Notes: generated from the letters alone by a model not told the origin. A stretch of DNA of 64,000 bases from Candidatus Heimdallarchaeota archaeon (GCA_046761065.1 JBHIFL010000007.1:1-64000), one strand, 5' to 3'. Shown: positions 22,237 through 37,472, counted from the first letter of the stretch. A program made the numbers and translations.

Positions 22237-23331
22237 TCAAGTTATTAAACGCCCATATTTGTTCAAAACTTCTCTAAGGCGATTATGAGGAAGGCTGATC
22301 ACTTTGTTACCATCACGACCAATCATGGTTTCTGCCGCACACAATGCATTCACAATCGCTTCTTCAGTAGCCTGAATGGTTGCTTCAAATACAGAATCCA
22401 TTTGTTCGTTCGGAAACATTGTCAGTTGAGCAATTCCCGATGGGTTTGCAGCTCCACGATTGGCAGTGGAAAAGGCAAGAAAAATGTCTCCGGAGAAGTT
22501 ACTGGAAATACTACCAACTTTTCCAAGTCCTAAAGAAGCTCGGTGTGCCAATCGTGTTAATTGATGTGGCAAAAGAGGGGTATCCGTTGCAATGACGATG
22601 ATGATTGAATTTTTGACCTTGGAACGAATTAAATGATTCTGAATTTCAAGCCCTACTGGAACTCCGGCGATTTGAAGGTGATCCCGACGTCCAAAATTCG
22701 CTTGGACAAGTACCCCTAATATAAACTCACCCAGAGTTGTCTGGACTTTTCTGGAAGCCGTTCCAATTCCTCCTTTAAATTCAAAGCAGATCATCCCGGT
22801 CCCACTTCCCACACTCCCTTCGAGCACTGAGCCGGAACTAGCATTCTCGATCGCCTTAAAGACATGCTTTTTCTTGATGTGAAATCCGTTGATGTCATTT
22901 AGGAACCCATCATAAGTTTCTGCGACGACGGGCAACGACCATAATTGGCTCATGGGACCCTGCTTCACGTGCCATTCAATTACACTATCTCGAACGATTC
23001 CGACACTGTGAGTATTAGTCAACATAATTGGACCTTCCAAAAAACCAGACTCTTCAACCCAGGTGGTCCCAGTCATCTCCCCATTCCCGTTCAAAGAGAA
23101 CCACCCAGCAAACACACATTCAGTCGCTTTTTTTCCACGTGGAAAAATTGCTGTGACTCCTGTTCGGATCGGTCCTTTTCCTACGATCAATTTCCCCTCC
23201 CCAGAGATGAGCGTAGTATGACCAACCTCTACTCCTTGGACATCCGTTATGGCATTTAGTGGCCCAGGAGATCCTTCAAAAGGGATGCCTAAATCACGCG
23301 CCCTCGGTTTTTTCATCACATTATTTTGCAT
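22237..23331 (-). CDS. dmpA: DmpA/BapA family (S58/P1) self-processing aminopeptidase
   Basis: RARDLGI, NAITDV.GV.VGH, NGNGEMTG, ETYDGFLNDI, GTGM..FKGGIGTASR, N|SIIIVIATD cleavage site, SGDIFLAFST. Start moved to ATG 23331 (SD GGGGTG). Confidence 0.93.
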   Translation of the reverse strand: MQNNVMKKPRARDLGIPFEGSPGPLNAITDVQGVEVGHTTLISGEGKLIVGKGPIRTGVTAIFPRGKKATECVFAGWFSLNGNGEMTGTTWVEESGFLEGPIMLTNTHSVGIVRDSVIEWHVKQGPMSQLWSLPVVAETYDGFLNDINGFHIKKKHVFKAIENASSGSVLEGSVGSGTGMICFEFKGGIGTASRKVQTTLGEFILGVLVQANFGRRDHLQIAGVPVGLEIQNHLIRSKVKNSIIIVIATDTPLLPHQLTRLAHRASLGLGKVGSISSNFSGDIFLAFSTANRGAANPSGIAQLTMFPNEQMDSVFEATIQATEEAIVNALCAAETMIGRDGNKVISLPHNRLREVLNKYGRLIT

Positions 23332-23610
23332 TTTTACCACCCCAAATTCAAGCTTTTTATCAATTGTACGGTATGTGAAATGACATTTTGATCTGCTATT
23401 AAAATTCGTATTTGTCAAATTATTGCCTTTCTCAATGGATTCCCGTTTCCTTAAAGAAATAGGTTGAGTGTTCAGATAGGGATTCCAGAAAATAGGAAAA
23501 ATAGAGATACAAGTCAAATTCTTGTATAACCATCGAAACCCAAATTAATTTATAATGTCCCATAATGGGAATTATTAGCTGTTAAATTTCCGCGAAAGAA
23601 CCATTGGTGA

Positions 23611-24861
23611 GTGATAATGAAAATCTTGGTACTTGGCGCAGCCGGAAAGATTGGTTCAGCTCTGCTTAAAGATCTGATCCGAAGTGAAGGGGTATCTGAA
23701 ATTGTAGCGGCTGATCTAAAAATTCAAGGATTGGAAAAACTTGTTAGAGATCTAGGAAACGAAAAAGTCCAGACAGCACAGGTGAACGCTGCAAATAAAG
23801 CACAACTGGTTGAATTAATGCGAGATGGCATTGATGTGGTGGCTAGTGCTGTTTTATCATCTTATCAAAACACTGCCACCCGTGCTGCTATTACGGCGGG
23901 TGTTCATTTTTGCGATGTAGGTCAACCATATGAAGTGTTCAAACTTAATGAGGAAGCTACGACAGCTGATGTCACTGTGGTCCCAAGTTGTGGACTAGAT
24001 CCTGGAATTGACCGGGTCTGCCGTGGATACGCTATAGGTCGTCTAGACAAAGTTTTTGGTCTCTATTTATGGTGCGGGGGCATTCCTCCACCAGAACAAA
24101 AGGATGACAACCCGATAAATTATAAAATAAGCTGGGCTTGGTTTAGAGCTGTATCCACCTACCTCGGGGAAGCGGAAATCATTCGAGATGGGAAGGTTGT
24201 TAAAGTTCCCAAACTGGAAAATCCCCAGACCATTATATTTCCGGAACCCATTGGCGAGTGCGAAGCATTTATGTCAAGAGCTCCGTTTGATCTGATTGAG
24301 CAACTTAACTTGACGGACATACGTGAAGCATACGATACCTCTATCAGATGGAAAGGACACTGCGAGATCTGGAAAAAACTCATTGGATTACACCTCACAG
24401 ACTTTGAACCATTGCCAGTTAACATGCGGATACAGCTAGCCCCTCCAGGGTCCCCCCATAAATTCGATACGGAGTATCTCGAACCACCTATCGAAATTAG
24501 CCCATTTGAGTTCTTAAGCGCTTTGGGTGAGAAATATCTTCATTACGATCTTGAGAAGGGAGAAGGTGATCTTGTTTTATTACGGTCAAAGGTTACAGGC
24601 GAGAAAAACGGAGAACCAATGATGATAAGTCATGAACTCATTGAAAACTACGACCCTGAGACTGGCGTAACAGCAATGGGGCGGACCACAGCCTATCCAT
24701 GCTCAATCGTTGCCCAGATGATCGCAAAAGGCGATATAACAGAGCGAGGAGTTGTGCATTGCGGTAAGATTGGTCGGAATCCCAAAACAGCTGAGATCTA
24801 CTTTCAAGAACTAGCCAAGAGGAACATCAATCTCACGGAAACTGTGAGTAGAGCTCTGTAA
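23611..24861 (+). CDS. Saccharopine dehydrogenase / lysine 6-dehydrogenase family
   Basis: VLGAAGKIG Rossmann motif, CGLDPG, WCGGIP, NYKISW, TAMGRTTAYP. Confidence 0.9.
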   Translation: MIMKILVLGAAGKIGSALLKDLIRSEGVSEIVAADLKIQGLEKLVRDLGNEKVQTAQVNAANKAQLVELMRDGIDVVASAVLSSYQNTATRAAITAGVHFCDVGQPYEVFKLNEEATTADVTVVPSCGLDPGIDRVCRGYAIGRLDKVFGLYLWCGGIPPPEQKDDNPINYKISWAWFRAVSTYLGEAEIIRDGKVVKVPKLENPQTIIFPEPIGECEAFMSRAPFDLIEQLNLTDIREAYDTSIRWKGHCEIWKKLIGLHLTDFEPLPVNMRIQLAPPGSPHKFDTEYLEPPIEISPFEFLSALGEKYLHYDLEKGEGDLVLLRSKVTGEKNGEPMMISHELIENYDPETGVTAMGRTTAYPCSIVAQMIAKGDITERGVVHCGKIGRNPKTAEIYFQELAKRNINLTETVSRAL

Positions 24862-26838: not shown

Positions 26839-27822
26839 TTAAGAAGAACTTCCCCATGAGTCCACATAGAGCCAGCAATGCACTATATGATGAGAATTCA
26901 CTTGGATGGGCTCAGGAACTTTCTTCGAGCACACTTCCATTGCACGAGGACAACGTGGGTGAAATCTACAGCCAGAGGGCGGATTGACTAGATCGGGAGG
27001 CGTCCCAGGAATGGACTGAAGATCCATGGATTTAGCTAGAATGTTCGGGATTGAGGTTAAAAGTCCTTGAGTATAGGGATGCAGAGGTTCTCCATATAAA
27101 GTTGTGGCATCGGCCTCTTCTGCGATTTTCCCGGCATACATTACAGCAATTCTGTCAGTCAATTCAGCTACGACGCTTAAATCATGGGTTATCAAAATGA
27201 ATGAAAGATTGAGTTGGTCCTTCAGGTCTCGTAACAAGTCAAGGATGTGTGCTTGGACGATCACATCAAGGGCAGTGGTTGGTTCGTCGGCAATGATTAA
27301 ATCGGGATTTAACACCAAAGCTAAAGCGATCATAATTCGCTGTTTCATGCCCCCACTGAATTGATGTGGGTAATCTGTGAGCCGTTCCTCCGCGATACCA
27401 AGTGTTTCCAAAATTTTTTTGGTCCGATCAAGGGCAACCGCTTCTTGAATCTCTTCATGCGACAAGATTGTTTCGAGGAGGTGTTTGTCTACCCTCATCA
27501 CAGGATTTAGGGATGTCAGAGGGTCTTGGAAAATCATGGCAATACGGGTCCCTCTAATCTTTCTCATGTCTTCTTCACTTTTCTCTAACAGATTTTCACC
27601 ATCTAGAAGGATTTTCCCGCTAACAATCTTCCCCGGATCGGGGACGAGTCGGATAATTGAAAATCCAAGCGTGGATTTACCACAACCGGACTCGCCAACA
27701 AGCCCGAGGGCTTCACCATGGCCCAACTGTAAGCTCACATTATCTACCGCTCTTACCATGTCTCCGCTTGGTAGAAGAAAGAAGGTCTGCAGATTCTTTA
27801 TTTCGAGTAATGGTCTGGGCAT
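26839..27822 (-). CDS. dppD: Dipeptide/oligopeptide ABC transporter ATPase
   Basis: GESGCGKS, FQDPLTSLNP, YPHQFSGGMKQR, ADEPTTALD, HPYT, C-terminal GCRFHPRC..C..C. Confidence 0.95.
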   Translation of the reverse strand: MPRPLLEIKNLQTFFLLPSGDMVRAVDNVSLQLGHGEALGLVGESGCGKSTLGFSIIRLVPDPGKIVSGKILLDGENLLEKSEEDMRKIRGTRIAMIFQDPLTSLNPVMRVDKHLLETILSHEEIQEAVALDRTKKILETLGIAEERLTDYPHQFSGGMKQRIMIALALVLNPDLIIADEPTTALDVIVQAHILDLLRDLKDQLNLSFILITHDLSVVAELTDRIAVMYAGKIAEEADATTLYGEPLHPYTQGLLTSIPNILAKSMDLQSIPGTPPDLVNPPSGCRFHPRCPRAMEVCSKKVPEPIQVNSHHIVHCWLYVDSWGSSS

Positions 27823-27848
27823 TTCTACTACGCATCTCCTTCTGGGAG

Positions 27849-29033
27849 TTAGAAACGGATTTCACCGGCCCTGTGACACGCAATTTTGCGCCCTTGGAAT
27901 TTACGTAATGTGGGAACTTCCTGCGAGCAAATATCTACAACGAAAGGACAACGAGGATGATATCTACAGCCGCTGGGGGGATCTATAGCACTAGGTATTT
28001 CGCCTTTGGGTAATTTTTTCTTTCTTTTTGCGGTTGGATCAGGGACTGGGACTGCGGACAACAACGCAACTGTATAAGGGTGTAGTGGATCCTCGAAGAT
28101 GGTTTTAACCGGACCTTGCTCGACAATATGGCCGAGATACATGATTCCAATCCGGTCACAAACATATTTGGCTGTGGCCAGGTCGTGTGTAATGTAAAGA
28201 TATGTAAGGTCAAACTCGTCTTTCAGGTCGGCCATTAGCCGGAGGATCTCGATGCGAATCGATACATCCAACATCGAGATTGGCTCATCTGCCACGATGA
28301 ATTCTGGCCCTAAGATTAGCGCCCTGGCAATAGCCACTCGCTGCCTTTGCCCCCCACTAAGCTCGTGCGGGTACTTCTCATAAAAGGACTCAGGAGGGGT
28401 TAACCCCACTCGTTCTAGCATGTTGAGTACTCGCTCATTCTTGGGGACTTTCTCTCGCTGTCGGAGAAAGTAACCTAGTGAAATAACGATAAGAAAGAAG
28501 CCAACAATGAATGAATACACGGTATTGGCAAGTCCTAGACCCCCAATTAGACTAAGTAAGGCTGCTGCGAAAGCACACAAAGATAACAACCACACAGACC
28601 GGTCGTATTTTTGAACAATTTCTTTTTCGTGAGCGTTTTTGTATAACTGATGAATCTTGATGGCATGCTCGATGATTTGGCCGATCTTCATGCGTGGGTT
28701 CAACGAAGCATAGGGATCCTGAAAGATAATTTGCATGTATCGCCGGAGCAGGCGGGATTCTTTTTTAGAGAGATGCGTAATATCTGAATTTTTAAATAAA
28801 ACGCGGCCATCCGTCGGTTCATAAAGACCAATGATGAGTTTCCCCGCAGTGGTCTTTCCACACCCACTCTCCCCCGCCAAACCAAAAATTTCCCCCTTTC
28901 TTATTTCTAGGTCGATGCCATCAACTGCTTGAACAAACTCCTTCCTGCCCGTGAAAAGGCGCTCCAGAAAAGATTTCTGAACTAAGAAGTGCTTCTTTAA
29001 CCCCTTGACACTAATAAGTATATCACCATCCAT
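27849..29033 (-). CDS. dppF: Dipeptide/oligopeptide ABC transporter ATPase with internal hydrophobic hairpin insert
   Basis: GESGCGKT, FQDPYASLNPR, YPHELSGGQRQR, ADEPISMLDVSIR, HPYT, GCRYHPRC. About 60 aa inserted, with hydrophobic helices at aa 147-190. Confidence 0.92.
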   Translation of the reverse strand: MDGDILISVKGLKKHFLVQKSFLERLFTGRKEFVQAVDGIDLEIRKGEIFGLAGESGCGKTTAGKLIIGLYEPTDGRVLFKNSDITHLSKKESRLLRRYMQIIFQDPYASLNPRMKIGQIIEHAIKIHQLYKNAHEKEIVQKYDRSVWLLSLCAFAAALLSLIGGLGLANTVYSFIVGFFLIVISLGYFLRQREKVPKNERVLNMLERVGLTPPESFYEKYPHELSGGQRQRVAIARALILGPEFIVADEPISMLDVSIRIEILRLMADLKDEFDLTYLYITHDLATAKYVCDRIGIMYLGHIVEQGPVKTIFEDPLHPYTVALLSAVPVPDPTAKRKKKLPKGEIPSAIDPPSGCRYHPRCPFVVDICSQEVPTLRKFQGRKIACHRAGEIRF

Positions 29034-29101
29034 TTTTTATCCCAAGTCATGATTTTATGGAACAATAATTGTTAACATATTCAATCATGCTCGTTTCCCC
29101 A

Positions 29102-30043
29102 CTATTTCCGTATTTGGGGGCTTAGAATGACACTTAGACCTTCTCCGACCAAACTAAGGCCGATACACAAAATCACTACCATCAACCCCGGAAAGACAAA
29201 GGTCCAGGGATAGCTTGGAAACCAGCGATAGAAGGATTTTTGGAGGTCCCACCCCCAGTCCGGGACATCGGGACCTACACCAAGGCCTAAAAAGGAGAGT
29301 CCTGCCTCCGTAAGAATGGCATCAGCCATGTTGAACGCAAGTACTGCTAGGATTGAAGGAACGATATTGATCGCAACATATCTCACCAGAATTGATGCTT
29401 CACTTGCTCCAATGGCTTTTGCTGCCTCAACATACAGTTCCTCACGCACCTCAAGAGCTTGCCCCCGCATCACCCGGTAGTAGATAGGTATATAGATCAC
29501 GCCGATAGCTACCGCAACATTGCCCGCGCCAGGTCCTAGCACCGCAGTAATTGCTATGGCTAACACGAGTCCAGGAAAGGCATAAAGCGAATCCATAACC
29601 ATAGTAGTCATGCGATCAAAGGTTCCTCCTCGGTATCCAGCGAGAAGACCCAAAGGCACTCCAATTAGGATTGAAAATAGTGATGCTACAAAAGCGACTA
29701 ACAAGGCGATTCGAGCCCCATAGATAACTCGACTCAAGACATCTTGGCCAATATCATCCGTTCCCATAATGTATTCATAGCCTCTAATAGAAGTCTGAAA
29801 TGGAGGCGTAAATCTATCTGCAATTTGCTTCGTACTCTCTATATTAGGGTTATAGGGAGCTAAAAATGGTGCAAAAATTGCAAAAATAAAAAATATCGAA
29901 ACTATAGTTAGACCTAAAATCGTTAATTTCCTTTCCATCCCAGGGGGGAGAGTTCCAAGCAATTGACGGAATATTCCAACCCTTTTCGGTATTTTCTTAA
30001 TTTCAGGGGGGCGATCTTTCTTTAACACAGTCAATCGTTTCAC
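29102..30043 (-). CDS. dppC: Dipeptide/oligopeptide ABC transporter permease
   Basis: APFLAPYNP, MGTDDIGQDVLSRVIYGAR, YVEAAKAIGAS (EAA loop), EAGLSFLGLG..PDWG. Confidence 0.95.
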   Translation of the reverse strand: MKRLTVLKKDRPPEIKKIPKRVGIFRQLLGTLPPGMERKLTILGLTIVSIFFIFAIFAPFLAPYNPNIESTKQIADRFTPPFQTSIRGYEYIMGTDDIGQDVLSRVIYGARIALLVAFVASLFSILIGVPLGLLAGYRGGTFDRMTTMVMDSLYAFPGLVLAIAITAVLGPGAGNVAVAIGVIYIPIYYRVMRGQALEVREELYVEAAKAIGASEASILVRYVAINIVPSILAVLAFNMADAILTEAGLSFLGLGVGPDVPDWGWDLQKSFYRWFPSYPWTFVFPGLMVVILCIGLSLVGEGLSVILSPQIRK

Positions 30044-30052
30044 TTTCCATTA

Positions 30053-31441
30053 TTAATATCTAATTCGTGGATCGAGATATGCATAGAGTAAATCTATGAT
30101 CAAGCTGACTATGGCTACCATAATGGCAAAGAAAGCCGTACCCCCTTGAACTACTGCATAGTCTCGATATTGAATCCCTTCGTAAATATATCTACCTATT
30201 CCAGGCCAATTAAATGTAGTTTCGGTCAGGATAGCCCCTCCCAACAACAAAGCAAATTGCATCCCAGCAACGGTGACAATCGGAATATAGGCGTTCCTCA
30301 ATGCATGACCTCTTACAACCTTCTTCTCGGGGATTCCACGTGCTCTAGCTGCGGTAACAAAATCCATTCGAAGCATCTCCAAAACATTGACACGAGTCAT
30401 TCGACTAAAAAATCCTGACAAGTAAAGCCCCAAGGTAATTGAAGGGAGTGTCAAGTGGGTTAACACGTCTTTGATCCAATATGGATCCCGATTCATCCCT
30501 TCTGGAGGCCATATGATACCTAAAAGGCTATCGAGAAAATATAATCCAGTTCTACGATAGGAGGAAAATTGGTCTTCGGAAGATATGCGGAAGCCCATCG
30601 GAAATTGAACTAGGGGAAAAAGATCTCGCGCCAAGAGCCGTGGATACAGTACTGCCGTGAATAGATATGTCAGGACGATTCCCATCCAAAAATATTTTGA
30701 TGACAACGTATGACCTCGTCGTTCGGCTAGTGCAAAGGCGAGAATAATTCCCAGACAGAATAGAGCTGCTACAAGGTCTAATTTTGCAAGAATTGAAAAT
30801 AAGATATCGTATGCTAACAAAATACCAGTACTTGCAAACGACAACTTCTTTGTGGATCGGTGAAGACCCACTTCTTCGATTAGGGCAAATGACACAATGA
30901 TCCCTAAACAAAAGATAATAGGAGCCGAATTGTATCGAACTGCAAAAGCAAAGATCATCATGATTCCAAACCAGAAGATCGGAATGGAAAAGATCCCGAT
31001 TGCATATACGCGTGCAGCAGCATCCCCGACTGTGTTACGGTGAACTGCCGCAGCCGTTCCCGATCTCACGCCAACTATATAAGCAACGAGCGTTGCGAAA
31101 ATCGCCAATTCCATAGTGGCTGGAAATTTGAAGAAGAGTTCATCCTTAACAAGGAATCCCTTCCTGATCCCCATCGTCTCCCCAAAATCAAACCGTAGCA
31201 TATCATGAATGAACCTAATGTATTGGACCCATATCGGATCATTTAATCCTAGCGCTTCTCTTTCTGCTTGGATTACTTCTTCAGGTGTCCGCAACCCAGC
31301 TAGAGTTCTCACAGGATCCCCAGGGATCACACGAAGAATCAAGAAGACGAATGTGAGAAGAATAAAAATCATGGGAAATACTAAAATCAGCCGGTGGATA
31401 AAATAGGCGCGCAGCGATTTTGTTGATGACAAAATAATCAC
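30053..31441 (-). CDS. dppB: Dipeptide/oligopeptide ABC transporter permease with ~110-aa TM insert
   Basis: IPGDP, LGLNDPIWVQY, FPATMELA, SIPIFW, HLTLP, DFVTAARARG, HALRNA, TETTFNWPGIG, RDY, LDPRIRY. Confidence 0.93.
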   Translation of the reverse strand: MIILSSTKSLRAYFIHRLILVFPMIFILLTFVFLILRVIPGDPVRTLAGLRTPEEVIQAEREALGLNDPIWVQYIRFIHDMLRFDFGETMGIRKGFLVKDELFFKFPATMELAIFATLVAYIVGVRSGTAAAVHRNTVGDAAARVYAIGIFSIPIFWFGIMMIFAFAVRYNSAPIIFCLGIIVSFALIEEVGLHRSTKKLSFASTGILLAYDILFSILAKLDLVAALFCLGIILAFALAERRGHTLSSKYFWMGIVLTYLFTAVLYPRLLARDLFPLVQFPMGFRISSEDQFSSYRRTGLYFLDSLLGIIWPPEGMNRDPYWIKDVLTHLTLPSITLGLYLSGFFSRMTRVNVLEMLRMDFVTAARARGIPEKKVVRGHALRNAYIPIVTVAGMQFALLLGGAILTETTFNWPGIGRYIYEGIQYRDYAVVQGGTAFFAIMVAIVSLIIDLLYAYLDPRIRY

Positions 31442-31487
31442 CTGATCAAAAAAAGAGAGGGGATATGGAGAGTATTTATGCTTTTAC

Positions 31488-33248
31488 TTAGTTTCGCTTT
31501 TTTCTGGAAGCTCTCAGTACAATAGATATACCTAAAGCTCCACCGACAACTAGGATGCAGGAAGCAAATTCAGATACGACTGTAGTGGTCACGAGGGTAG
31601 TAATTGGCATAGTAGTGACAACTGTTTCGACCCCGATAACCGTTTGCCCTATCGTTGGGGGACCGGTTGCAAGATGATAATCAATCTCTGTCGTTCCTTC
31701 CTTATAATCTACCAGTGTGCTCCCGCAATGCCTTGCTAAATTCCAGGAATGATAATCGTACGTGTCCGCGGCATCTAGCGAAATTACCTTATCGACAGTA
31801 CCTACTCTTAGTACACCATCGGTGTTGGGCCCTTTCTGAATATTTTCATAGCGTATGGTCATATCCGGACCGAGCACGACTCCAGTAACGTCCTTCTTGA
31901 AGGCTGCATTTTGGTAACCGTACCACAAGGGAATCACTTTGCACTCCTCAGCCATTATCTCCGCTGCCCTTTCATATAGGGCTTTTCGGATATTTAAATC
32001 GAGCGTTAGTCTAGCATTGTAAAGCAACGAATCTAGTTCGGGATTGAGAGGATCCGGTTTCGGGCCCCAGTTTGCCCCAGAACTGTGGTAAAATGGGTAT
32101 AGGTATGTATCGATATCCAAATAGTCTGGATACCAGCCGAGCAAGAATACTTCCATTTCAGTGGCTTTCCACTTCTGTCTATATTCTGCCCACTCGACGA
32201 ATTGTATAGTAACTTTCATCATTTTTGTTTCTTCGAGAGCAGCCTTAATTATTGCTGCAACAGATGCTTCTTCTGTGCCGTAGTGTGTAGGAGAGTACCA
32301 CAACTCAAATTCGAACGGGTTTGCTTCTGAATAACCTTCAGCAGCTAGTAATTCTCTTGCTTTAGCTAAATCTCTCGTGGGGAATTTTGAGGTAAATTCA
32401 TGGCCCCACATGCCAGGCGCTACCATGGTATAGGCCGGAGTCGTCATACCACTCCACGCTCCCTCGATGATTGCTGCTCTATCCACGGCATAGGCGATAG
32501 CTTGTCTGATGTTCTGGTTGATCCTCGGATACAGGGTTTCATTGGGCAACACAAGGTAACGGACTTGGCTGCTGGGAGGTAGGATGACATCAATATCATC
32601 CGCTTCATTCGCCATCAACTCTGTTATCTTGGTGGCAGTAAGGTGTCTGTGGGCAAGATCAATGTCTCCCGCTTCCAGAGCGGCTGCGAGTAGGGCATTC
32701 GACGCGTAGTATGTGATAATGACTTTAGAGTTCTTCACTGGATTTGGGTAATTATAGTAATTGGGGTTTCGTTCTAATACTACTTCGACGTCCCTCGTCT
32801 CGGATGTCAGTCTGTAGGGGCCTGTGCCCCATGCTATTGCTCCATCTACTCCGTCGGCCTCTCCGGAAACCACGGATACACTATCCTTCTTGAGGACAAT
32901 AGCAATGGAATTCGTCAGTATAATTTCGAAGAATGGAAAATTGTCCTTCAGAATGAATTGGACATGATTATCATCCACTACCTCTATTGAATGGATCATA
33001 TCCGCTAAGAGGAATGCAGCATCTTGACCCATATTAATAGCTCTCTCGAAAGACCATTTCACATCGTGAGCGGTGAGTGTCGTGCCATCTTTAAACTTCG
33101 CATCTGTACGTAGTTCATACGTGAATGTCGGTACTTCTTTCTGTGCAAAGACCGGTGTAGTTGCAGCAGTTCCTAGACCCAGTACGCAAATGAGCAAAAG
33201 TAGTCCATAGAGTCTTCTTGTATTTCTCATTTTGATTTTTCTCTCCAT
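31488..33248 (-). CDS. dppA: Family 5 (Dpp/Opp) substrate-binding protein, circularly permuted, with Thr-rich linker and C-terminal TM anchor
   Basis: TFTYELR..AKFKDG..LTAHDVKWSFER directly after the signal peptide; GTGPY, RQAIAYAVDR, GWYPDY.D.D; the normally N-terminal LRVG..SLD..LV.Y..LA block is at aa 478-528. Alternative start at 33230. Confidence 0.88.
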   Translation of the reverse strand: MERKIKMRNTRRLYGLLLLICVLGLGTAATTPVFAQKEVPTFTYELRTDAKFKDGTTLTAHDVKWSFERAINMGQDAAFLLADMIHSIEVVDDNHVQFILKDNFPFFEIILTNSIAIVLKKDSVSVVSGEADGVDGAIAWGTGPYRLTSETRDVEVVLERNPNYYNYPNPVKNSKVIITYYASNALLAAALEAGDIDLAHRHLTATKITELMANEADDIDVILPPSSQVRYLVLPNETLYPRINQNIRQAIAYAVDRAAIIEGAWSGMTTPAYTMVAPGMWGHEFTSKFPTRDLAKARELLAAEGYSEANPFEFELWYSPTHYGTEEASVAAIIKAALEETKMMKVTIQFVEWAEYRQKWKATEMEVFLLGWYPDYLDIDTYLYPFYHSSGANWGPKPDPLNPELDSLLYNARLTLDLNIRKALYERAAEIMAEECKVIPLWYGYQNAAFKKDVTGVVLGPDMTIRYENIQKGPNTDGVLRVGTVDKVISLDAADTYDYHSWNLARHCGSTLVDYKEGTTEIDYHLATGPPTIGQTVIGVETVVTTMPITTLVTTTVVSEFASCILVVGGALGISIVLRASRKKRN

Positions 33249-33803: not shown

Positions 33804-35036
33804 TTGATGGATTTGAAAGTTGTGTTCGGAGATTGTTTAATAGATGGCACCGGAAGCGATCCGATCGAAAATGCGGTAATTGTGATTGAAAATGAAAGGA
33901 TCACAGAAGTCGGCCATAAGAACGAGGTGAGCATTCCATCAAATGCTCAAATGATTGAAGGAAAAACCGTTATGCCGGGGTTGATAGAGGCCCATGCTCA
34001 CCTGTTTGGAACTTTATCGATGAACCCACATGACTGGTTACTTGATCCAGTTGGTCTGCGGGCAATCCGAAGTACCGCGGAAGCGCGGAGACTTCTCGAT
34101 GCAGGATACACTGCTATTCGGGACCTGTGTGGCGCCACCATACTTTATCTAAAACATGCAATCAATGAGGGATCCGTTCTAGGCCCTCGAATCTTTGCGG
34201 CGGGTCGTAGTATCTGTCAGACAGCTGGTCATGGCGACGCACACGATCTTCCAATGACATGGCTTCTTGAACATGGGTGGTTTGGACTAATGGCCGATGG
34301 ACCAGACGAATGTCGTAAAGCAGCGAGGATAAACCTCCGGGACGGAGCGGACCTCCTTAAAGTCATGACGACAGGAGGGATTATGAGTGAAAAAGACCAC
34401 CCCATATGGCCACAAATGACCGTGGAAGAGGTGCGTGCGGTTGTGGAGGAAGCTGATAAGGTCAATACGATCGTTGCAAGTCATGCTCAGGCTCCTCAGG
34501 GTATCCAAATCGCCATCAAGGCGGGGGTTAAAACGATCGAACATGGGATCTTCTTGGATGACGAAACTATTGAGATGATGTTGAAAAAGGGAGTCATCTT
34601 AGTTCCCACACTTTCAATTCTAAGCCAAATTGCCTTGATCGGAGACCAGCATGGTGTACCGAAGACATCTTTACATAAAGCAAAAGAGGCGAGAGAAGTC
34701 CATTTAAAAAGTATCAAGAAAGCTGTGGCAGCGGGGGTGATCGTGGCAGCAGGAGCAGACTTTCTCGGGCCAGCGATGTGTCGGCATGGCGATAATGCCA
34801 TGGAATTAGGGTTCTTGGTCGAAGCTGGAATGTCACCCATGGAAGCGATTGTAGCAGGAACTCGAAATAGTGGCCTCGCGTTGGGACCGAGGGGACAAGA
34901 TCTAGGTACTATCGAAGAAGGCAAATTAGCTGACTTAATTGTAATCGATGGCAACCCTTTGGCAGATATCAATGTGTTGAGAGAAACCGCACGTATAAAA
35001 GTGGTCATGAAAGGCGGTGAGGTAGTGAAGCGGTAG
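33804..35036 (+). CDS. Metal-dependent amidohydrolase (Xaa-Pro dipeptidase-like)
   Basis: MPGLIEAHAH, TAGHGD, LKVMTTGG, SHA, TIEHG, GAD, GKLADLI. Confidence 0.92.
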   Translation: MMDLKVVFGDCLIDGTGSDPIENAVIVIENERITEVGHKNEVSIPSNAQMIEGKTVMPGLIEAHAHLFGTLSMNPHDWLLDPVGLRAIRSTAEARRLLDAGYTAIRDLCGATILYLKHAINEGSVLGPRIFAAGRSICQTAGHGDAHDLPMTWLLEHGWFGLMADGPDECRKAARINLRDGADLLKVMTTGGIMSEKDHPIWPQMTVEEVRAVVEEADKVNTIVASHAQAPQGIQIAIKAGVKTIEHGIFLDDETIEMMLKKGVILVPTLSILSQIALIGDQHGVPKTSLHKAKEAREVHLKSIKKAVAAGVIVAAGADFLGPAMCRHGDNAMELGFLVEAGMSPMEAIVAGTRNSGLALGPRGQDLGTIEEGKLADLIVIDGNPLADINVLRETARIKVVMKGGEVVKR

Positions 35037-36905: not shown

Positions 36906-37472
36906 TTGGATAATGTGGATCGAGCAATCATTTCATCACTGGTATTAAATGGTCGCACAACGCTTAAACAGTTGAGTGAAAAAATTGGCTTTACTAGCAC
37001 GGGCATCAAAAAACGATTAGCTCGATTATTCAATAAAGGGATTCTAAAAGTATCTGCACTCCTGAACCTTAACGCCCTGAAATTACACGCAGCACTCCTT
37101 TTGCTTGAACTTGAGAGCGGACTTGTATTAGACAACTACATTCAACGGTTTCGAGAATGTCCCCGAATCGTCCAAACATTCCGCCTCCTTGGAGGTTATA
37201 ATTTAGCATTAATCCTGATTGCTGAAAATTCAGATACTCTTGAAAGTATAACAGCTTATTGTCCTTTACGAGCCCAGGAGGTGGTCCGCAGGTCTGAGTT
37301 ATATCTAATAAGTGATCTACCATATTCCGCTTATTTACCAGTTCGCGAACACCTTGTTCGTGGAAAAAACGGAGAAACTCCTTGTAATTGCGATTGTGCT
37401 GGCTGCGGTCGGTATCAAAGTAACAAGTGTGTGGGATGCCCCGCATCTGAAAAATATCGTGGGACCTTATAA
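36906..37472 (+). CDS. Lrp/AsnC family transcriptional regulator with Cys-rich C-terminal tail
   Basis: MDNVDRAII..L..NGR..LSEKIG..IKKRLARL..GIL HTH; RAM domain (GGYNL); tail CNCDCAGC..CVGCP. Confidence 0.9.
   Translation: MDNVDRAIISSLVLNGRTTLKQLSEKIGFTSTGIKKRLARLFNKGILKVSALLNLNALKLHAALLLLELESGLVLDNYIQRFRECPRIVQTFRLLGGYNLALILIAENSDTLESITAYCPLRAQEVVRRSELYLISDLPYSAYLPVREHLVRGKNGETPCNCDCAGCGRYQSNKCVGCPASEKYRGTL

Follow-up and report, generated by a model that had tools for sequence, protein, structure and literature searches.

A PepT-family ABC importer operon from an Asgard archaeon with three subunit changes that occur separately in its relatives

We analysed a stretch of 64,000 nucleotides from Candidatus Heimdallarchaeota archaeon (GCA_046761065.1 JBHIFL010000007.1:1-64000), here called the window, in which positions 26839-33248 hold an operon for an Opp/Dpp-type ATP-binding cassette (ABC) importer. 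The operon consists of five co-directional open reading frames (ORFs) on the minus strand with intergenic gaps of 9-68 bases, and they encode a substrate-binding protein (SBP), the permeases OppB and OppC, and the ATPases OppF and OppD. The chain of the SBP is circularly permuted, OppB has an insert of about 109 residues in the loop between transmembrane segments (TM) 3 and 4, and OppF has a hydrophobic hairpin of 60 residues. The operon is likely to encode a working type I ABC importer of the PepT family (TC 3.A.1.5) in a Heimdall/Hod-type Asgard archaeon, with these three subunit add-ons acquired separately, and it probably imports peptides, a substrate that is predicted. The original prediction had taken the three subunits to be co-remodelled. 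Each of the changes was found without the others and, when their co-occurrence was followed phylogenetically, the three separated across homologs; because each occurs independently, a joint remodelling is not supported.

All three changes and the gene order F-D are kept in the close relatives of the window (87-89% OppF identity), as recovered independently from ENA, Logan, and JGI assemblies. These close relatives are one lineage and therefore stand for one evolutionary event. G005 and G007, which have the orthologs of highest identity (59-68% in the OppF core and 57-63% in OppD), show the canonical form of each of the five genes. In 14 genomes of four other Asgard families, OppF carries a two-helix hydrophobic insert at precisely the site seen in the window. 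OppB could be read in 12 operons that encode a hairpin OppF outside the window's lineage (11 from those 14 genomes and one from a metagenome assembly), and it was canonical (333-353 residues) in 10 of them; the block order of the SBP was canonical in all eight operons where it was readable. The hairpin OppF of G071 is accompanied by a single hairpin in the same TM3-TM4 loop of OppB. G065 (L016, G065:C1 ~1847354-1853600) encodes an OppB of 795 residues with about 16 hydrophobic segments, including about ten extra N-terminal helices, and an OppC of 507 residues. The OppF hairpin of G065 was gained independently, as an approximately unbiased (AU) test rejects a single clade (p 0.0005).

Permuted SBPs and OppB inserts were also found beside canonical partners. 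The archaeal SBPs P0147-P0151 (L044 8001-9722, L045 149-1870) have the break point of the window's SBP, are anchored N-terminally, and belong to operons with canonical B, C, D, and F subunits. Their tether consists of an N-terminal RREAL-type (Tat-like) signal or helix and a Thr-rich stalk, with no C-terminal anchor. P0183-P0188 are permuted at a different break point, and the B, C, D, and F subunits of those operons are again canonical. The genome of the window itself has further operons with permuted SBPs: the partner ATPases are canonical on contigs C1 and C10, and contig C72 ends after OppC. In the C1 operon, OppB (C1:64411-65562) has a two-helix insert in the TM3-TM4 loop beside canonical OppD and OppF. 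The OppC of the same operon (C1:65587-67101) is 504 residues long, and elsewhere (L042 6739-8037 and L043 8809-10461) OppC proteins of 432 and 550 residues with several extra N-terminal hydrophobic helices occur with canonical ATPases. As predicted from these sequences, extra helices are common on Asgard Opp permeases.

In an OppF tree built without the insert columns, a weakly supported branch (79/78) has both the window group and the large hairpin clade on one of its sides, with the canonical G005 and G007 just outside. Since the window's OppF groups with the large hairpin clade, and the other two changes are limited to the close group of the window, the tree suggests an earlier origin of the OppF hairpin, followed in the window's own lineage by the OppB insert, the SBP permutation, and the swap of the D and F genes.

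The SBP gene (31488-33248, minus strand) encodes 586 residues of family 5, cluster C (PF00496, E 5e-72, 243 bits). With a profile built from 21 canonical relatives, profile positions 100-522 matched SBP residues 40-472 (E 2e-132) and positions 42-90 matched residues 479-527 (E 1.6e-7, Z=1e6). BLASTP against canonical Asgard relatives returned the same two swapped blocks in 8 of 8 alignments, with residues 478-528 on residues 33-93 of the relatives. Thus, the two blocks are in reversed order and together cover the whole canonical profile, as in a natural permutant. The chain is cut at the turn of a beta-hairpin in domain II, directly before the conserved 'TFTYELR..DG' strand, and the former ends are now connected through a short linker. 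On the minus strand, the main block (canonical profile ~100-522) extends over 31833-33143, so that the chain now starts with the second strand of the domain-II beta-hairpin. The relocated block, which is the canonical N-terminal part of about 50-60 residues, follows the old C-terminus at 31629-31832 (minus strand). In the AlphaFold2 (AF2) model, the predicted local distance difference test (pLDDT) score was 79.5 overall and 71-90 for the relocated block (residues 471-540). The model matched DppA (5f1q/1dpp) with a template modelling score of 0.73, and the structures of GsiB and NikA were also matched, so the model predicts a DppA-like fold that keeps the relocated block integrated. The ratio of nonsynonymous to synonymous substitution rates (dN/dS) of the relocated block is 0.23-0.26, which is comparable to the SBP core. 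Six additional protein clusters with 64-71% identity have the same form of SBP.

Both ends of the permuted SBP carry features for export or attachment. A new N-terminal signal peptide of the Sec type occupies residues 1-35 (33144-33248, minus strand), with a basic n-region, a hydrophobic core at residues 16-34, and then ..VFA/QKE, where the putative cleavage site lies. At the C-terminus there is a candidate anchor or sorting signal (31491-31628, minus strand) that consists of a Thr/Val-rich stalk, an SEF motif, one TM helix, and the basic tail RASRKKRN. The hydropathy of this tail peaks at residues 560-578, a helix spans residues 561-585 in the AF2 model, and the tail is conserved in P0122-P0126. 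In this genome, 21 ORFs, namely the SBP and 20 others, end in a hydrophobic helix and a basic tail preceded by a PGF/PEF/SEF-like motif, and the genome has one gene of the exosortase/archaeosortase family (PF09721, 47 bits, C29:17142-17828). NCBIfam scans of the C-terminal block alone and of the tail alone gave no match, sorting-signal models included. By its sequence pattern, the anchor may be an archaeosortase-type signal that is cleaved and lipid-linked. The permutation would put the tether of the receptor on domain II instead of domain I. The permuted SBP of one close relative was called as 522 residues in two assemblies (L026 and L027 3775-5506), and a separate ORF of 53 residues covers the remainder in L027; in a third assembly of the same relative (L028), the permuted SBP is intact with 575 residues. 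The short calls may reflect a stop codon at the strain level, or a sequencing error, immediately ahead of the stalk and anchor.

Permutation of family-5 SBPs is frequent in this genome: four of its eight are permuted, at three or more break points. The other three (C72:15461-17377, C1:62424-64304, and C10:65603-67465) have different break points, and two of them also end in a Thr-rich stalk followed by an (A/P)E(F/L) motif, a helix, and a basic tail.

The OppF gene (27849-29033, minus strand) encodes an ATPase of 394 residues whose best NCBIfam matches are DppF/OppF models and which has the four-Cys C-terminal domain. Relatives match only residues 1-137 and 198-394, and the 60 residues between them (138-197; 28443-28622, minus strand) have no counterpart among the paralogs of the same genome or the solved relatives. 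The insert lies in the variable part of the helical subdomain, between the helix downstream of the Q-loop (FQDP, 104-107) and the helix just upstream of the signature (LSGGQRQR, 225-232). It is a two-helix hydrophobic hairpin with Lys/Arg-rich flanks: hydropathy peaks at residues 149-167 and 172-190, with five Lys/Arg residues flanking each side, and the AF2 model has two long antiparallel helices (134-165 and 171-195, pLDDT 80-91). The dN/dS of the insert is 0.13-0.20. The hairpin most likely makes OppF an integral membrane protein beside OppC, where it would serve as a built-in membrane anchor or assembly aid. A profile search with the alignment of hairpin OppF proteins against 1.84 billion representatives matched mostly fused double-ATPase proteins, and the matches listed included at least three further single-domain hairpin OppF forms (P0241, P0242, and P0372). 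P0242 (L049 234-1919) is a hairpin OppF of 561 residues with about 140 extra residues between the Cys residues of the C-terminal domain and a faint PAS_4 match.

The OppB gene (30053-31441, minus strand) encodes a permease of 462 residues with about 10 TM. It matches PF19300 and PF00528, and the NCBIfam models of the DppB/NikB type and the solved DppB/OppB chains from the PDB align to it in two stretches around residues ~170-300; its EAA motif is at residues 355-369. Alignment with canonical OppB places the roughly 109 extra residues (171-279; 30605-30931, minus strand) in the outward TM3-TM4 loop. They form two tandem hairpins with four hydrophobic segments (175-193, 200-218, 221-239, and 253-271), of which the first and the third are each followed by a short loop rich in Lys and Arg. 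This pattern fits two hairpins that enter the membrane from outside and do not alter the core topology, because the inserted helices are even in number. The hairpins arose by tandem duplication, with an internal-repeat z of 10.7 that was reached by 0 of 2000 shuffles. The dN/dS is 0.29-0.58 in the insert versus 0.05-0.16 in the core, which indicates purifying but relaxed selection. Seven closely related protein clusters were the only ones found to have the insert, and it was seen in none of the 399 other Asgard genomes searched. Its sequence relation to the inserts at the same site in the C1 operon and in L014 is weak or none (z 2.6 and z 0.6, respectively), and with such values a common origin of these inserts is not shown. 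The helices of the OppB insert probably provide peripheral bulk or lipid contacts. The anatomy in the original prediction stands for all three subunits. The circular permutation of the binding protein is agreed on by the profile, the BLASTP alignments, and the AF2 fold; the roughly four extra TM segments of DppB correspond to the four hydrophobic segments of the insert; and the hydrophobic hairpin of DppF was recovered as a two-helix insert by alignment, hydropathy, and AF2.

The main alternative is that a single co-evolved accessory membrane subdomain, and hence a new importer architecture, is formed by the insert of OppB and the hairpin of OppF, perhaps with the relocated anchor of the SBP. 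We consider this improbable, although several observations speak for it. No close relative recovered lacks any of the three changes, which are under purifying selection, and the lineage of G071 and L014 is a second one in which a hairpin OppF occurs with an OppB that has a hairpin in the same loop. The TM3-TM4 loop is near the B/C interface, and as judged from the E. coli complex the inserted helices could reach the OppC side (PMC12136057). However, the close relatives count as one event, each change occurs alone in other operons, and the OppF hairpin is probably older than the other two changes. The OppF hairpin and the OppB insert also have no detectable sequence relation (z -1.0); that between the OppF hairpin and the SBP anchor is marginal (z 2.4).

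The geometry of the solved complex bears on the same question. In Escherichia coli DppBCDF, DppB pairs with DppD and DppC with DppF, and the pathway is lined by TM3-TM6 of both permeases (PMC12136057). By homology, OppF would lie under OppC and OppD under OppB, which argues against a joint subdomain; since DppF docks on DppC and not on DppB in E. coli, the OppF hairpin is expected beside OppC. By analogy with this structure, the loop that carries the OppB insert would be close to the top centre of the translocator, from where the inserted helices could extend to one lateral face or the other. The geometry thus permits contact of the OppB insert with the OppF hairpin but does not imply it. A complex prediction with OppB 8-462, OppC 36-313, and OppF 1-265, in which OppF was the partner, gave a score that was independent of OppB and is evidence neither for nor against such contact.

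A more specific form of this alternative is a lateral bundle of seven helices at the OppB/OppC interface, to which the OppF hairpin would contribute two helices, the OppB insert four, and the C-terminus of the permuted SBP one, and we regard it as, if anything, a little more doubtful. If it were true, the ATPase, channel, and receptor would be bound by this bundle into a single membrane complex that is permanently assembled, and the operon would encode a type I ABC importer whose ATPase is an integral membrane protein and whose receptor is tethered and kept in register. Some points weigh against our own preference for separately acquired add-ons. The separability of the changes elsewhere leaves room for packing of the inserts against each other in the window's complex, the lineage of G071 and L014 has its paired hairpins, and the membrane insertion of the hairpins is a prediction from hydropathy, charge pattern, and a single-chain model.

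The inserts might instead be tolerated passengers in permissive loops, with no role of their own and kept since their removal would now be harmful. This would agree with the relaxed constraint on the OppB insert, with the poor conservation of the hairpin sequences between clades, and with the extra helices at many positions in Asgard OppB and OppC. However, the same OppF site is occupied in at least five Asgard families and was filled by at least two independent gains, given the AU test against a single clade, and the OppF hairpin keeps its helix length and charge pattern at a low dN/dS. Mere passengers are therefore quite unlikely. Decay or artefact, in the form of pseudogenes, misassembly, or RNA-level introns removed before translation, is very improbable: the estimated contamination of the bin favours it, but all frames are open, all motifs are intact, ENA, Logan, JGI, and NCBI data independently yielded the same architecture, and there is codon-level purifying selection on the inserts (dN/dS <1 in every insert). 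The intron and pseudogene readings were rejected on the open frames, the intact motifs, and the dN/dS values; the inserts are in frame, with 180 and 327 bases. The argument against decay that the original prediction had drawn from the intact motifs holds, and both inserts are also under purifying selection.

In the reading that we prefer, an ordinary importer has been modified at three places. The SBP chain is cut at the turn of the domain-II beta-hairpin and its old ends are fused, with the DppA-like fold kept in the model. The protein would be exported via its new signal peptide and held at the cell surface by the Thr-rich stalk and the C-terminal helix, maybe after processing by an archaeosortase. 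Two tandem helical hairpins are inserted into the outward TM3-TM4 loop of OppB, and a hairpin of membrane length into the variable region of the helical subdomain of OppF, which would thereby most likely stand as an integral membrane protein next to OppC.

The remaining subunits and motifs are those of a conventional importer. OppC (29102-30043, minus strand; 313 residues) is canonical, with PF12911 and PF00528, NCBIfam matches to Opp1C (4-266 of 267) and DppC (30-299 of 300), and an EAA motif at residues 201-212. OppD (26839-27822, minus strand; 327 residues) is also canonical and matches NCBIfam OppD over 1-317 of 318. A tree placed the 394-residue ATPase among OppF and the 327-residue ATPase among OppD proteins (support 100/100), and the gene order is therefore A-B-C-F-D. 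This order F-D is the reverse of A-B-C-D-F, which is found in every relative outside the window's close group. The swap is a fourth rearrangement and may be a trace of a recombination that imported the hairpin OppF. Walker A/B, the Q-loop, the signature, the D-loop, the H-loop, and the four-Cys motifs are complete in both ATPases, and EAA motifs are present in both permeases. The original prediction had listed an operon dppA-B-C-F-D, canonical DppC and DppD, and intact Walker A/B, signature, EAA, and C-terminal Cys motifs. Pfam, NCBIfam, and the tree confirmed the first, the full-length NCBIfam matches bore out the second, and the motif check found every motif present.

Both ABC ATPases carry the Oligo_HPY C-terminal domain, and the permeases are a pair of two BPD_transp_1 types, a B type with PF19300 and a C type with PF12911, as in the PepT family. 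The usual PepT architecture of six-TM permeases, soluble ATPases, and N-to-C block order of the SBP is not kept in the window. Since these traits are typical rather than defining, the operon is classed as a PepT-family variant. The genome is a 4.4-Mb Asgard bin with 91% completeness and 8.2% estimated contamination, and close homologs of the window's OppB carry the source names Heimdallarchaeota or Hodarchaeota.

Flanking genes within the window encode an S58 (DmpA-type) aminopeptidase (22237-23517), a saccharopine-dehydrogenase-like enzyme (23611-24861), an amidohydrolase (33804-35036), and an AsnC-type regulator (36906-37472). They fit a neighbourhood of uptake and catabolism of peptides or amino-acid derivatives, and it is from this context that the ligand is predicted. 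Sugars too are bound by some archaeal family-5 binding proteins.

In textbook type I ABC importers, the ATPases are soluble and contact the membrane subunits only via coupling helices. An ATPase with a membrane hairpin in its catalytic domain raises the questions of how the hairpin is inserted, whether it restricts the movement of the ATPase dimer between its open and closed forms, and whether it senses lipids. In this operon, such an ATPase is combined with additional helices in the permease and with a receptor that is permuted and tethered at its C-terminus. The canonical close orthologs in G005 and G007 are natural controls, and the operon is a compact system for structural and insert-deletion work. 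The data also add evidence that the family-5 fold has been circularly permuted many times, which is useful for protein evolution and biosensor design. In the literature searched, we found no description of permuted family-5 binding proteins or of membrane helices inside the ATPase of an ABC importer, in line with the original prediction, in which the architecture was not recognised.

The best-studied relatives are DppABCDF/OppBCDF of E. coli and OppABCD/DppABCD of Mycobacterium tuberculosis (PDB 8z1v-8z21, 8j5q, 8wd9; PMC12136057). They have the same five-part composition and Pfam domains as the window's operon, with the same EAA motifs, ATPase motifs, and four-Cys domains; the cores of OppB, OppF, and the SBP align with theirs, and the Cys spacing of OppF (6/7/17) is that of E. 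coli DppF. In contrast, the solved Opp/Dpp relatives have no residues that match OppF 138-197 or OppB 171-279, and the window differs from them in the rotated chain order of the SBP, the gene order F-D, and the C-terminal anchor of the SBP. A naturally permuted binding protein is known from Treponema pallidum, MglB-2 (Tp0684; PMC4990184). Like the window's SBP it keeps the periplasmic-binding-protein fold despite its rotated chain, but it belongs to a different SBP cluster. The tail of the window's SBP has the same stalk, (S/P)EF motif, helix, and basic tail as PGF/PEF-CTERM archaeosortase signals and archaeal SBPs with Ser/Thr-rich stalks and a C-terminal helix, but it matches no NCBIfam sorting-signal model. 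The hairpin OppF proteins of other Asgard archaea share 42-48% identity with that of the window and carry their insert at exactly its position, between the Q-loop helix and the pre-signature helix, but they have an SGGER signature and are encoded in operons of the order A-B-C-D-F, unlike the A-B-C-F-D of the window. The operon seems not to represent a transport system of a new kind, and the best place for it is among the variants of the PepT importer, as one that stacks three separately evolving add-ons.

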